Positions 14,918 through 20,033 of a stretch of 64,000 nucleotides of DNA are shown here, piece by piece (the first letter of the stretch is position 1; every line of letters begins with the position of its first letter). The DNA is taken from contig CAWKBO010000002.1 in the NCBI GenBank assembly GCA_963847895.1, forward strand, positions 33,722 to 97,721. The letters are read 5' to 3'. The notes under the pieces were generated by a model that did no database searches, was not told where the DNA came from, and saw only the letters and a program-made list of their open reading frames with translations. This stretch comes from an uncultured Gemmatimonadales bacterium. Lineage in GTDB: Bacteria > Gemmatimonadota > Gemmatimonadetes > Gemmatimonadales > GWC2-71-9. The translations under genes were made by a program, and so were the position numbers.

Positions 14918-16036
14918 ATGAAGCCCGCGTGGTTGCCCTCTCTTGCCGCCCTGCTGGTGCTCGCCGCCTGCAGCCACAGCGATCCGTTCCCGACCGGACC
15001 GCAACTCGGAGACGGCTCCTTCGACCAGGTCGAGCCGGTCCGCCTCACCTTCAGCACCGGCGACGACGGCTGGCCCACGGTGAGCGCCGACAGTCGCTGG
15101 CTGTCCTACCGCTACTCCCGAGGCAGCAACGATCGCGACTTCTGCGCCGGCATCCTGCCATTGCGTGGTGGCCAGCGGTTGGCCAGTCTCTGCGCCTGGG
15201 AAACCAACGATGGGGCCCGCTCCGATGACTTCCGCTCGGCGGTCCTCCTCGATGACCAGACCGTGGCCTATACCCGGCACTCCGCGGGCACCGGAAACCA
15301 GTCGCCACAGGAGGCGGGGCTCTATGTCGCCCAGCTGAACGCCACCCGCGACGCCCGGCAGGTCCTGCCGCTGCTCGGTCGCCCGGCAGGGGCGAGTGCC
15401 AACTACACCTACCTCCTCGATCCGGTGCGCGAGGATGACCACACGATCCTGGCACTGGCCACGGGCGCCTATATCGGCCCGAAGGTCGCCTTCGGTCCGG
15501 TCGACACCACGTACCTGGGGATCGAGGTATCGCGGATCGACGTGTCGACCACCCCCGCCACGGTCACCCCGGTCGTCGCGACCCCCAACGCCGTCGCGTG
15601 GGCGCTCGACCGCTCGACCCAGATGGTGTACTTCCATCGCCGCTATTACTCGGACCCGCCCGGGAGCGGCGCGTTCTCCGTGGTGGCCGACACGATCTTC
15701 CGGGCGCCGCTCGCTGGTGGCGAGGTCCAGGTGGTCTATGGCCGTCCGCACGTGGCAGGGTCGATTGACGAGGGGCTCGACGGCTTCGCCGTGGTCAACG
15801 GCCGCCTGTTCGTGTCGCAGCACAGCACCCGGACACTGCCGCCACCGCAGAACGGGGTCGAGACCAGGAGTGATGTCGGCGAGGTGCAGCTCGACGGATC
15901 GCTGGACCCGCTCAACACCCGGCTCACCAACACCGGCTCGCTCTGGGCCCGGCTCTCCGCGAGCCCGGACGGCCACACCCTCGTGGCGGCGAGCCTCCTC
16001 GCCGGGCAGCGCGACCTCTACCGGTTCGACATCTGA
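14918..16036 (+). CDS. lipoprotein, TolB/PD40-like beta-propeller (paralog 1)
   Basis: ORF 14768-16036. The start is taken at MKPAWLPSLAALLVLAACSHS (lipobox). The C-terminal LSASPDGHTLVAAS...DLYRFDI is PD40-repeat-like. It is clearly homologous to the next gene. Confidence 0.6.
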   Translation: MKPAWLPSLAALLVLAACSHSDPFPTGPQLGDGSFDQVEPVRLTFSTGDDGWPTVSADSRWLSYRYSRGSNDRDFCAGILPLRGGQRLASLCAWETNDGARSDDFRSAVLLDDQTVAYTRHSAGTGNQSPQEAGLYVAQLNATRDARQVLPLLGRPAGASANYTYLLDPVREDDHTILALATGAYIGPKVAFGPVDTTYLGIEVSRIDVSTTPATVTPVVATPNAVAWALDRSTQMVYFHRRYYSDPPGSGAFSVVADTIFRAPLAGGEVQVVYGRPHVAGSIDEGLDGFAVVNGRLFVSQHSTRTLPPPQNGVETRSDVGEVQLDGSLDPLNTRLTNTGSLWARLSASPDGHTLVAASLLAGQRDLYRFDI

Positions 16037-16038
16037 TC

Positions 16039-17193: not shown

Positions 17194-17249
17194 CCTCCCT
17201 GCCCTTCCGCCACCTGTTCACCGTCCGCCCTCCTGCCCGAGGACGCCCG

Positions 17250-20033
17250 ATGCTTCGCCTCCCGCTTCGCTCCACCCTCCTGCTCGCCGCCCTGCTCCTG
17301 CCGGCCGGCGTTCTCGCGGCCCAGGCCTCCGGTGGCCTCGTCGGCAAGGTCACCGATGCGTCCACCGACAGCCCACTCCGCGGGGTCGAGGTGCGCCTCG
17401 ATGGCGGTCGCTTCCGGGCCACCACCGACCCACTGGGCGAATATCGATTCCGTGGCGTCCCGGCGGGCCAGCACGTGCTGGCCGTCATCTGGCCGGGTTA
17501 TCGCCCCGCCACCCGCGACAGCGTCTTCATCCGCGCCGGTGAGATCGTCCGTGCCGACATCCGCCTGGCGCCGACCGCGGTGCAGCTCCAGGACCTGACC
17601 GCCGTCGGCGTGCAGGATCCGGTGCTCGATCCACTCGCCACCCAGACGGTGCAGCGGATCAGCGAGGAGGATCTGCGCCGACTTCCGGTGTCGTCGCTGG
17701 AGGATGCGATCGCCCTGCAGGCCGGGGTGGTGGGCGAGTCGTATCGTGGCGGGCGCACCGGCCAGTCGGCGTTCGTCCTCGACGGTCTCGGCCTCAAGAA
17801 CCAGCTCGACGCCTCGACCAACGGCCCCGGCATCCGGATCCCGCCCGACCTGGTCACCGAGGCACAGTTGATCACCAACGGCTTCAGTGCCAAGTATGGC
17901 CAGGCACTCTCGGGACTCGTCAACGTGACCACCCGCGATGGCGGCGACCACTGGCGGGGTCGGCTGGCGTACGAGACCGACCGGCCGATGTCCGGAGTGG
18001 CCGACCTCGGCCTCGACCGCTTCGTCGCCGAGGCCGACGGCCCGCTGGCGGGCCGGGTGACGGTGGTCGGCGTCGTCGACGTCTCGGCGCGACTCGACTT
18101 CGACGCGGTGAATGCCCCCACCCCGAGCGATCCCCACGATCCGCGCTACGACACACCGCGACCACTGCCACACAACAGCGGCGAGAGCTGGACGGCCGGC
18201 GGCAAGATCACCGTGCCGATGGGCGACCGGGTGATCGGCCGGGTGTTCGGCCTGATGAGCACCGAGCAGCAGTATCTCTTCGACCAGCGCTACAAGTACG
18301 AGCCCGACTTCGGTCCGGGTCGCCGCGTCGATGGGCGGCTCTTCTCCGGTCACCTGCAGCTGCTCCCGGGCAACGGGCACACGCCCTTCCTCGGTGACCT
18401 GCGGATCGGCTACTTCGATCGCGAGTTCATCCGCGGCGCCGTCGCGGCACCCGACTACACCTTCGGCGCCTTCACCGGTTCGCCGTTCTCGATTCGGGGC
18501 GAGGAACTCGCCAAGGCCCAGGACACGGTCAACACCCGCGATCCGATCGCCGGCTTCACCCCGCCCGAGTTCTCCGACCGCACCCCGTGGGGTGTCCCCG
18601 GGTTCTTCCTCGGTAGTGCGTCGACCGGTGAGATCTCGTGGAACACCTTCACCGAACTGCGTGGCCAACTCGACCTGAGTGTCGGACTGGGCCAGAACGC
18701 CGACCTCGCGTTCGGTGGGCTGTATGCCTCACAGGACGTGCACACCTTCCAGCGGGTCCTCGCGGCCGAGCCAGTGGGGGGCGACGTGCCGCCGCCGACC
18801 GCCTCGACGTTCTCGCCGTTGATCAGCGGAGCCTACGTCGAGGCCCAGGCCCGTGCCAGCGACCTCGGCTTCACCGTTGGGGTGCGCTACGACGGCTTCG
18901 ACCCCGGTGGTGACCTCAACAACGCCACCGTGGGCACCCGCACGTCGATCAACCCGCGTGCGGCGGTCTCGACGGTGCTGCGCGGTGCCACGGTGGTCGG
19001 CAGCATCGGCCGATTCTCGCAGGCTCCGGACCTGCAATACCTGGTCGACGCGGCGTTCGACGACACCACGCGCACTGGTCGCTTCCGCCAGGGCAACCCC
19101 AATCTCGGCTTCGAGCAGGGAACCCAGTTCGAGCTGTCGGGCCGGATCCGGATCCGGCCCGAGACCTCGCTCAAGATGAACGTGTACACCAAGAACCTCG
19201 AGGGCCTGGTGGCCACCGCGCCGCTGGGGGTCAATCCCGACTCGAGCCAGTTCGTCAACGCCGATGTCGGCAACGTGATCGGCGCGGAGCTCATCTTCCA
19301 GCGTGAGCGCGTCGACGGATGGGGTGCCCGGCTGGCGATGGTCGTGCAGCGAGCCGAAGGGACCGTGACGGATGCATTCCAGCTCAACCGGCTGATCCGG
19401 ATCGACCCGAACACCGGCGACACCCTGGCGGCCCCGGCGCGGGCGCAGTTCCCGCTCGACTTCGATCGCCGACTGGCATTGATCGCCACCTTCGACGGCG
19501 AACTGAAGGAGCATGCCGGACCCGCACTCCTCGGTGGCCACCCGTTCGGCTCGGTGCTCGCCTCGGCAGTCCTGCGCTACGGCACCGGCCTGCCGTTCTC
19601 GCGCACCGATATCACCGGCGATTCGCTCGCCGCGGAACCCAACGGCTCCCGGTTGCCCTCGCAGTGGTCCCTCGACATGCTCTTCCGCAAGCCGATCACC
19701 GTGGGCCGATTCAGTGGCGGCCTGTACCTCGACATCCGCAACGTCGCCAATACCCGGAACGTCCTCTCGGTGCGGCGGGACACCGGCAATCCCGACGCCT
19801 CGGAGACCTACCTGAGCACGATCGCGGAACAGGCCTACCAGGCCAATCCGCAACCGATCCCGTTCGAGTCGCCGCGCTACCGCCGCTTCGGCGACCTCAA
19901 CGGCGACGGACGCATCGCCGGACATGACGAGCTCTTCCCGCTCTACCTGTCGGCCGCCCGGGACTACTCGCAGCCCTTGTTTGTGTATGGCCCGCCGCGC
20001 CAGATCCGGTTCGGCATGGAGTTCCTCTTCTGA
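17250..20033 (+). CDS. TonB-dependent receptor-like outer-membrane protein with N-terminal CarboxypepD_reg domain
   Basis: ORF 17127-20033. Signal peptide MLRLPLRSTLLLAALLLPAGVLAAQA. GLVGKVTDASTDSPLRGVEVRLDG...GEYRFRGVPAGQHVL is CarboxypepD_reg-like. The plug-like region reads VSSLEDAIALQAGVV...FVLDGLG. The terminal RFGMEFLF ends in an aromatic residue, as in OMPs. Confidence 0.8.
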   Translation: MLRLPLRSTLLLAALLLPAGVLAAQASGGLVGKVTDASTDSPLRGVEVRLDGGRFRATTDPLGEYRFRGVPAGQHVLAVIWPGYRPATRDSVFIRAGEIVRADIRLAPTAVQLQDLTAVGVQDPVLDPLATQTVQRISEEDLRRLPVSSLEDAIALQAGVVGESYRGGRTGQSAFVLDGLGLKNQLDASTNGPGIRIPPDLVTEAQLITNGFSAKYGQALSGLVNVTTRDGGDHWRGRLAYETDRPMSGVADLGLDRFVAEADGPLAGRVTVVGVVDVSARLDFDAVNAPTPSDPHDPRYDTPRPLPHNSGESWTAGGKITVPMGDRVIGRVFGLMSTEQQYLFDQRYKYEPDFGPGRRVDGRLFSGHLQLLPGNGHTPFLGDLRIGYFDREFIRGAVAAPDYTFGAFTGSPFSIRGEELAKAQDTVNTRDPIAGFTPPEFSDRTPWGVPGFFLGSASTGEISWNTFTELRGQLDLSVGLGQNADLAFGGLYASQDVHTFQRVLAAEPVGGDVPPPTASTFSPLISGAYVEAQARASDLGFTVGVRYDGFDPGGDLNNATVGTRTSINPRAAVSTVLRGATVVGSIGRFSQAPDLQYLVDAAFDDTTRTGRFRQGNPNLGFEQGTQFELSGRIRIRPETSLKMNVYTKNLEGLVATAPLGVNPDSSQFVNADVGNVIGAELIFQRERVDGWGARLAMVVQRAEGTVTDAFQLNRLIRIDPNTGDTLAAPARAQFPLDFDRRLALIATFDGELKEHAGPALLGGHPFGSVLASAVLRYGTGLPFSRTDITGDSLAAEPNGSRLPSQWSLDMLFRKPITVGRFSGGLYLDIRNVANTRNVLSVRRDTGNPDASETYLSTIAEQAYQANPQPIPFESPRYRRFGDLNGDGRIAGHDELFPLYLSAARDYSQPLFVYGPPRQIRFGMEFLF

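Follow-up and report, generated by a model that had tools for sequence, protein, structure and literature searches.

To our knowledge, structural accounts of how lipoproteins assist TonB-dependent uptake come almost exclusively from Bacteroidota (SusCD, RagAB, BtuBG, and XusAB), plus a few Proteobacteria (TbpAB). One of these lipoproteins, BtuG, folds as a seven-bladed propeller. In Bacteroides, this propeller lipoprotein sits on the TonB-dependent transporter (TBDT) BtuB like the lid of a pedal bin (PMC10404256), and Bacteroides thetaiotaomicron holds several such pairs—BtuB1G1, BtuB2G2, and BtuB3G3 (PMC10404256; PMC6143338). XusB, a seven-bladed DUF4374 propeller lipoprotein, binds xenosiderophores for XusA (PMC13142918; PDB 9GBC, 9GCY). 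The subject of this work is a locus with a comparable gene architecture, found in a stretch of 64,000 nt (hereafter, the window) from an uncultured Gemmatimonadales bacterium (assembly GCA_963847895.1, contig CAWKBO010000002.1, positions 33,722–97,721 of the forward strand), with a G+C content of about 70%. This locus consists of two tandem genes for lipoproteins, LipoA and LipoB, followed by a gene for a large TBDT-like outer-membrane protein (hereafter, the barrel). The Gemmatimonadota, to which this bacterium belongs, are an abundant, poorly studied soil phylum. On balance, we favour a reading in which the lipoproteins are accessory subunits that capture the ligand for their cognate TBDT, in analogy to BtuB–BtuG and XusA–XusB.

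LipoA (14918–16036, + strand, 372 residues) and LipoB (16039–17193, + strand, 384 residues) are PD40-type lipoproteins whose genes are separated by only 2 nt. Both proteins hold a signal peptide and a lipobox, which is LAAC in LipoA and LVGC in LipoB, so that the mature proteins start with CSHSDPF and CGHSAPF, respectively. A preliminary description of the window had proposed that they are paralogs, and this is what they are: their identity is 32% over the full length (BLASTP, E 9e-57), a similarity far above chance, and the blocks DG-FDQ..P.RLT.S, LCAW, LPL..RP.GASA, and SPDG...DLY on which that proposal was based are all present in both. Each protein matches a single repeat of the Pfam family PD40, with 24.7 bits for LipoA and 26.7 bits for LipoB (gathering cut-off, 20.9), and so do 22 of 32 family members. 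No other Pfam family was found for these two proteins or for the family members examined, and LipoA and LipoB match none of the NCBIfam models. Among related loci (designated by handles such as L001), the orthologs of LipoA exhibit identities of 76% (L004), 62–64% (L001/L002), and 53% (L006).

An alignment of 32 sequences of the lipoprotein family (A1) reveals a small set of invariant features. These are the lipid-bearing Cys, a His at position +2 inside a C-x-H-S/T-x-P-F motif, a D-x-D-x-C...G-G...C block that probably includes a disulfide, and a D-T pair. The motif forms the mature N-termini of both proteins (14969–14989 in LipoA and 16081–16101 in LipoB), and its His+2 is retained in most of the distant family members that were read. 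No counterpart of C-x-H-S exists in the four other predicted lipoproteins of the window, which carry CG(A/G).. at this position. Possible roles of the C-x-H-S-x-P-F N-terminus are those of a sorting signal, of a tether for docking, or of a metal ligand.

The preliminary description had placed propellers where a SusD-like protein would be expected, and structure prediction agrees with it. The AlphaFold2 model of LipoB, built with A1 as input, is confidently all-beta and lacks any extra domain (predicted local distance difference test (pLDDT) score, 86.8; predicted template modelling (pTM) score, 0.86). Its 23 strands, which are accompanied by one short N-terminal strand, are read as a six-bladed propeller of about six four-stranded blades with a velcro-style closure. 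In the model, residues 16–29 after the lipid Cys form a disordered tether, and the propeller starts approximately 20 residues past the Cys. Foldseek searches with this model against the PDB returned generic propellers only (E of about 1e-7 to 1e-6, template modelling (TM) scores of 0.40–0.47, identity of about 10%), including G-beta, TolB, trilobed and prolyl-oligopeptidase propellers, sialidase, and oligogalacturonate lyase; among them, TolB gave the lowest root-mean-square deviation (rmsd), with a TMq of 0.45–0.47. In sequence searches against the PDB with LipoB (phmmer) and with profile A1, at E values up to 10, nothing but two chance-level matches appeared. Because the fold matches are generic and the PDB sequence searches empty, these proteins are best described as PD40-type propellers without a characterised relative. 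The searches in Pfam, NCBIfam, and the PDB did not assign them to any unrelated periplasmic family, and assignments to BamB-like proteins and to the SusD family were rejected.

Some of these observations might also suit a different role, in which the propellers would be enzymes or processing factors—such as a peptidase-gating propeller or a hydrolase—that alter the substrate ahead of its transport or afterwards. The polar residues that are invariant in A1 (in LipoB numbering, His+2, Y61, D69-x-D71-x-C73, D206-T207, and D268) might make up a site for catalysis or for a metal. PD40 propellers are known from S9 and Tricorn peptidases, and the gene immediately upstream of the lipoprotein gene in one related locus (the P0171 locus) encodes an S9 peptidase that has a propeller of this type. 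Six-bladed propeller hydrolases, namely oligogalacturonate lyase and sialidase, are also found among the fold matches. However, searches of Pfam, NCBIfam, and the PDB recognised neither a catalytic domain nor a catalytic motif, the fold matches are generic (TM of about 0.45 at an identity of about 10%), and the low identity between paralogs (about 23–35%) suits binding diversity better than a conserved active site. An enzymatic role is consequently considered improbable, and ligand binding remains the preferred function of these propellers.

The lipoprotein family is broad. While word-indexed searches retrieved 14 and 21 relatives, a full profile search over 1.84 billion cluster representatives (50% clustering) yielded 206 proteins below an E value of 1e-30 and 632 below 1e-10, almost without exception full-length, at 340–395 residues, and a profile of a distant subfamily added 302 further proteins. 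A narrower profile, A2, used in a genome scan, gave three loci. All 20 of the distant members that were read hold a Cys behind a signal-peptide-like N-terminus, and most of them share a motif of the C-x-H-S/T-x-P-F type. The members with an organism name all come from Gemmatimonadales or from metagenome-assembled genomes of Gemmatimonadota, and they are annotated throughout as 'hypothetical' or 'PD40 domain-containing'. A prior description of the family was not found in the literature on Gemmatimonadota, or on PD40, in combination with TonB-dependent systems and lipoproteins.

The third protein of the locus is encoded at 17250–20033 (+ strand). The preliminary description had its gene abutting that of LipoB and its product at 928 residues; the barrel gene does lie just downstream, although 56 nt separate the two, counting from the ATG at 17250, and the protein comprises 927 residues. 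This ATG is the most likely start, as judged from the MLRLPLRS... N-terminus and the signal peptide ending in AAQ that it would provide, and the N-terminus MLRLPLRSTLLLAALLLPAGVLAAQ is a Sec signal peptide. In agreement with the proposed CarboxypepD_reg TBDT-like architecture, the protein holds a CarboxypepD_reg N-terminal extension (NTE; residues 30–106, 17337–17567, + strand), with 56.9 bits for PF13620 and 38.6 bits for PF13715, and a plug domain (residues 131–220, 17640–17909, + strand), with 26.9 bits for PF07715 (cut-off, 23.9). Between the NTE and the plug lies a candidate TonB box, QLQDLTAVGV (residues 112–121, 17583–17612, + strand), proposed from its position and pattern. This segment is aligned with ELNEVVVSTS of XusA in a profile match, is only loosely conserved among orthologs, and makes a plausible TonB box.

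The orthologs support the same classification. Pfam searches on eight of them detected CarboxypepD_reg and OMP_b-brl_3 in all eight, Plug in four, and TonB_dep_Rec_b-barrel (PF00593) in two, at 2e-19. A profile built from the eight orthologs (A4) matched, in the PDB, XusA of the XusAB complex of B. thetaiotaomicron (9gbc_A, E 8.6e-12) over the NTE and the following strand/TonB-box region only, the plug of the colicin I receptor Cir (E 1.6e-7, positions 123–297), and, weakly, RagA (E 1e-3). The C-terminus, ...FGMEFLF, ends in a Phe that is invariant in the eight orthologs, an aromatic end of the outer-membrane beta-signal type. The C-terminal part also holds an EF-hand/dockerin-like loop, DLNGDGRIAGHDE (residues 882–894, 19893–19931, + strand), whose residues D882, L883, G887, G891, and E894 do not vary across the eight-ortholog alignment; this suggests a conserved calcium site. 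On the basis of its domains, the 927-residue protein is filed as a TBDT. Its membership in the SusC/RagA family was rejected, as it scores 25 bits on TIGR04056, where the cut-off is 368, and over the N-terminal region only.

A link between both types of proteins is supported by their genomic distribution. The contexts of close and distant members were collected, and the lipoprotein and barrel families were mapped in them by hidden Markov models (HMMs). Eleven distinct loci include sequence downstream of the array and are thereby informative, namely the window, L001, L003, L004, L007, L009, L012, L013, L014, L016, and the P0171 locus. In 11/11 of them, a barrel-family gene is the next gene after the lipoprotein array, encoding a protein of 912–938 residues on the same strand, at a gap of 0–160 nt or overlapping. 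The array holds a single lipoprotein gene in seven loci (L004, L007, L009, L012, L014, L016, and the P0171 locus), two in the window and L013, three in L001, and four in L003. In L002, L006, L010, and L015, the array is incomplete, as the contig ends within it. The second copy of L013 (8200–9330) had been called as a gene of 307 residues and is a full-length lipoprotein paralog with a mis-called start, since the family HMM spans positions 11–377 of the longer open reading frame; a reading of this middle gene as a Peripla_BP_2 gene like that of L009 was ruled out. The order of lipoprotein first and barrel second is thus conserved, so that a lack of synteny, named in the preliminary description as a refutation, did not occur, but a fixed arrangement of three genes is not conserved: the conserved unit consists of at least one lipoprotein gene (from one to four) plus the barrel gene.

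Adjacency by itself could be inherited local synteny without functional coupling, in which case the lipoproteins and the barrel would act independently. Common descent would suffice to explain the pairing in the window, L001, L003, L004, L007, and L015, whose flanks are alike. PhzF, DUF1800/DUF1501, and a TsdA-like cytochrome are shared by the window, L001, L003, L007, and L015, and L004 has the PhzF and TsdA flanks in common with them but lacks DUF1800/DUF1501. Nevertheless, the pairing recurs across genomes where the flanks are unrelated (L009, L013, L014, L016, and the P0171 locus), L012 sharing only downstream genes. The genes always lie on one strand within the short distances given above, the pairing is complete among the informative loci, and no orphan lipoprotein apart from a barrel was seen among the loci mapped, all of which makes uncoupled synteny very unlikely. 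As the pairing persists where flanking genes differ, the comparative evidence indicates that the lipoprotein–barrel pair is kept together by selection, and not by descent alone.

Both partners evolve at clearly different rates. Relative to the window proteins, the barrel and the best-matching lipoprotein exhibit identities of 88% and 76% in L004, 81% and 64% in L001, 78% and 50% in L003, 71% and 37% in L007, and 53–56% and 23–28% in L009 and L012–L014, so that the divergence of the lipoproteins is roughly twice that of the barrel. In addition, copies are gained and lost within the array, which reads A-A'-B in L001 and only A in L004; L003 carries four copies that are diverse. Fast-changing, multiplying lipoproteins next to a slowly changing barrel are what would be expected of environment-facing specificity or capture subunits; the rapid divergence and the birth and death of lipoprotein genes therefore fit such a role.

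The same data have to be weighed against a location on the other side of the membrane. The lipoproteins may face the periplasm from the inner leaflet of the outer membrane, as partners of the periplasmic side of the transporter and with no part in surface capture. There, they could dock on the NTE or the plug, take over the cargo once it is translocated, or act in stabilising or assembling the barrel, in a way comparable to TolB or BamB. PD40 is the sole sequence signal in these proteins, and TolB is among their best structural matches, with the lowest rmsd. The inner leaflet is the default site of lipoproteins in most diderms; the barrel carries a periplasmic NTE domain available for a partner, and the conserved linkage would fit equally well. 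On the other hand, the fast divergence and copy turnover of the lipoproteins next to a conserved barrel are more typical of exposed specificity subunits, and the C-x-H-S-x-P-F N-terminus, which the window's other lipoproteins lack, could serve specifically for sorting or docking. Moreover, as far as we know, surface exposure is shared by all lipoproteins with a neighbouring TBDT gene that have been studied well, namely BtuG (PMC10404256), XusB (PMC13142918), SusD, RagB, TbpB, and HpuA. A periplasmic partner is hence regarded as possible, if on the unlikely side, and capture at the cell surface continues to be the favoured role.

According to the favoured model, the locus would be a two-component outer-membrane import module of Gemmatimonadota, in which LipoA and LipoB are cognate accessory subunits of the barrel, co-transcribed just upstream of it. 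Each lipoprotein would consist of a lipid anchor, a flexible tether of approximately 15–20 residues, and a PD40-type propeller with about six blades. In the manner of BtuG with BtuB and of XusB with XusA, the propellers are expected to capture the ligand at the cell surface and to pass it to the barrel, which would then import it with TonB energy. With one to four tandem paralogs in a locus, the range of ligands accepted by a single conserved barrel would be widened or shifted. The sequence evidence covers the paralogy, the lipoprotein signals, the predicted propeller fold, the transporter domains, and the gene linkage across the phylum; the physical complex, its surface exposure, the hand-over, and the cargo are all inferred, and, even if the lipoproteins are accessory capture subunits, the chances of a true surface lid and of something looser are roughly even.

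With regard to the cargo, the neighbourhoods offer hints that do not all point in the same direction. Upstream of the module, the window encodes an Opp-type oligopeptide ATP-binding cassette importer of five genes (4493–9989), comprising SBP_bac_5, two permeases, and two ATPases with oligo_HPY, and downstream of it, on the minus strand, a POT/PTR2 proton–peptide symporter (24843–26381). A Peptidase_M28 gene lies directly 5' of the lipoprotein genes in L003, L007, and L015, and in the independent context of the P0171 locus, the Peptidase_S9 gene overlaps the start of the lipoprotein gene. With these transporters and the M28, S9, and M55 peptidases of related loci, the region has a peptide-uptake flavour. 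In conflict with peptides, a Peripla_BP_2 gene (of the siderophore/heme/B12 class) overlaps the lipoprotein gene in L009. Because the hints from peptidases, Opp, and POT conflict with Peripla_BP_2, and since no riboswitch, for cobalamin or otherwise, was found in the window and eight related loci, the assignment is of low confidence: oligopeptides are the leading guess, with a metal chelate as the alternative.

Besides this conflicting neighbour and the lack of a riboswitch, several other points weigh against a TBDT with surface capture lipoproteins. L012, L013, and L014 have no cargo-informative neighbours, and the leader of the module contains no recognisable regulator site that would narrow the cargo. 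As for the barrel, its match to OMP_b-brl_3 in the window (26.5 bits) falls just below the cut-off of 27, and a single-sequence AlphaFold2 model of it reached a pLDDT of 30.5, too low to show the 22-strand barrel of a TBDT. Homology of the lipoproteins to BtuG, XusB, or SusD is not detectable by sequence. Lastly, we know of neither surface lipoprotein export nor a defined signal for it in Gemmatimonadota, and PD40/TolB-type propellers are typically periplasmic.

A more far-reaching version of the model would have Gemmatimonadota, like their relatives the Bacteroidota in the Fibrobacteres–Chlorobi–Bacteroidetes (FCB) group, export dedicated surface lipoproteins, perhaps by means of the C-x-H-S-x-P-F N-terminus. 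One conserved TBDT would then be served by one to four interchangeable six-bladed lids, each with its own ligand, probably peptides released by the co-encoded M28/S9 peptidases. In this complete form, the proposal is doubtful. If the surface-lid reading were true, the module would represent an independently evolved case of lipoprotein-assisted TonB-dependent uptake and the first evidence of surface lipoproteins in Gemmatimonadota.

Upstream of LipoA, an intergenic leader of 186 nt (14732–14917, + strand) probably acts as the promoter region of the lipoprotein–barrel operon, given the conserved blocks that it holds. The alignment of five orthologous upstream regions (from the window and four loci) revealed the blocks GTGACC..GGGTCTC, (G)GAACGCCCCC, and TACnnTT. 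Neither a sigma-70 consensus promoter nor, by eye, an AT-rich Fur-box-like site was found in these 186 nt, and the leader may contain a promoter of the extracytoplasmic function (ECF) type or of the FCB type, or an operator.

The leader is preceded by a gene for a DUF1800 protein (11811–13487, + strand) and one for a DUF1501 protein (13484–14731, + strand), which overlap by 4 nt, the latter with a twin-arginine signal, SRRVFLK. This pair is kept in most related loci; its absence from L004 shows that the module can do without it. Downstream of the barrel, the region 20035–20376 holds the remnant of a TauE/SafE-type permease, reduced to the C-terminal half and bearing a frameshift and an in-frame stop (20167–20169); an intact but short TauE reading frame of 95–120 residues occupies the equivalent position in L001, L003, and L007. 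It is followed by a TsdA/SoxA-like dihaem cytochrome c with a VSGC lipobox (20453–21295) and by subunits I and II of a cytochrome bd oxidase (22386–24692). Next to the barrel, L001, L003, L004, and L007 again carry the cytochrome c gene, and L012 carries the bd oxidase genes. No functional tie of the cytochrome c or bd oxidase genes to the module is evident.

Regarding described systems, the preliminary description had likened the layout to SusC/SusD. The pairing of a receptor with a lipoprotein holds, while the closest precedents are BtuB–BtuG and XusA–XusB. Like SusC/SusD and RagA/RagB, the locus combines a large NTE-bearing TBDT with an adjacent cognate lipoprotein gene; furthermore, RagAB imports peptides, the leading cargo guess here, and RagA is a weak match of the barrel profile. 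SusD-like proteins are alpha-helical, resembling tetratricopeptide repeat (TPR) proteins. In contrast, the partners described here are predicted to be all-beta propellers, and the gene order is reversed.

TolB, a six-bladed propeller, shares with LipoA and LipoB the PD40 repeats and the blade number predicted here, and it is among the best fold matches. Itself a product of the tol-pal operon, TolB is soluble and periplasmic and carries an additional N-terminal alpha/beta domain. Unlike TolB, the proteins of this family are lipoproteins, lack the N-terminal domain, and are always encoded beside a TBDT gene. An identification of LipoA and LipoB as TolB was rejected on account of their lipobox, the lack of that domain, and their neighbours, which are the TBDT and DUF1800/DUF1501 genes rather than tol-pal.

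The two propeller systems are nearer. As in BtuB–BtuG, a propeller lipoprotein is encoded with a TBDT. However, the lipoproteins exhibit no detectable sequence similarity to BtuG (phmmer and profile searches against the PDB), and the barrel, of approximately 920 residues and with an NTE, is not BtuB-like. A cobalamin riboswitch is also absent from the window and the eight loci. The likeness to XusA–XusB extends further, as in both cases a TBDT with a CarboxypepD_reg-type NTE is encoded beside a lipid-anchored single-domain propeller, which in XusB binds the cargo, and no PDB sequence matches the barrel profile better than XusA, with the match limited to the NTE and TonB-box region. XusB differs in its seven blades and its DUF4374 domain, whereas the lipoproteins described here are of PD40 type, are predicted to have about six blades, and bear no detectable sequence similarity to it. 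In addition, the barrel gene is preceded here by an array of one to four lipoprotein paralogs, the phylum is Gemmatimonadota instead of Bacteroidota, and neither a PepSY/XusC-like partner nor a sign of iron regulation was found here.

The module would carry the principle of lipoprotein-assisted uptake into the Gemmatimonadota with an unrelated, so far unannotated lipoprotein family and an unusual architecture, in which arrays of paralogous propellers precede a single, strongly conserved barrel. It also offers a concrete target for asking whether surface lipoproteins exist in this phylum, how several lids would share one transporter, and which nutrient is imported. As far as can be judged by comparison of sequences and gene order, LipoA and LipoB are not members of the BtuG or XusB families, but resemble both in gene architecture: propeller lipoproteins encoded alongside a TonB-dependent transporter.

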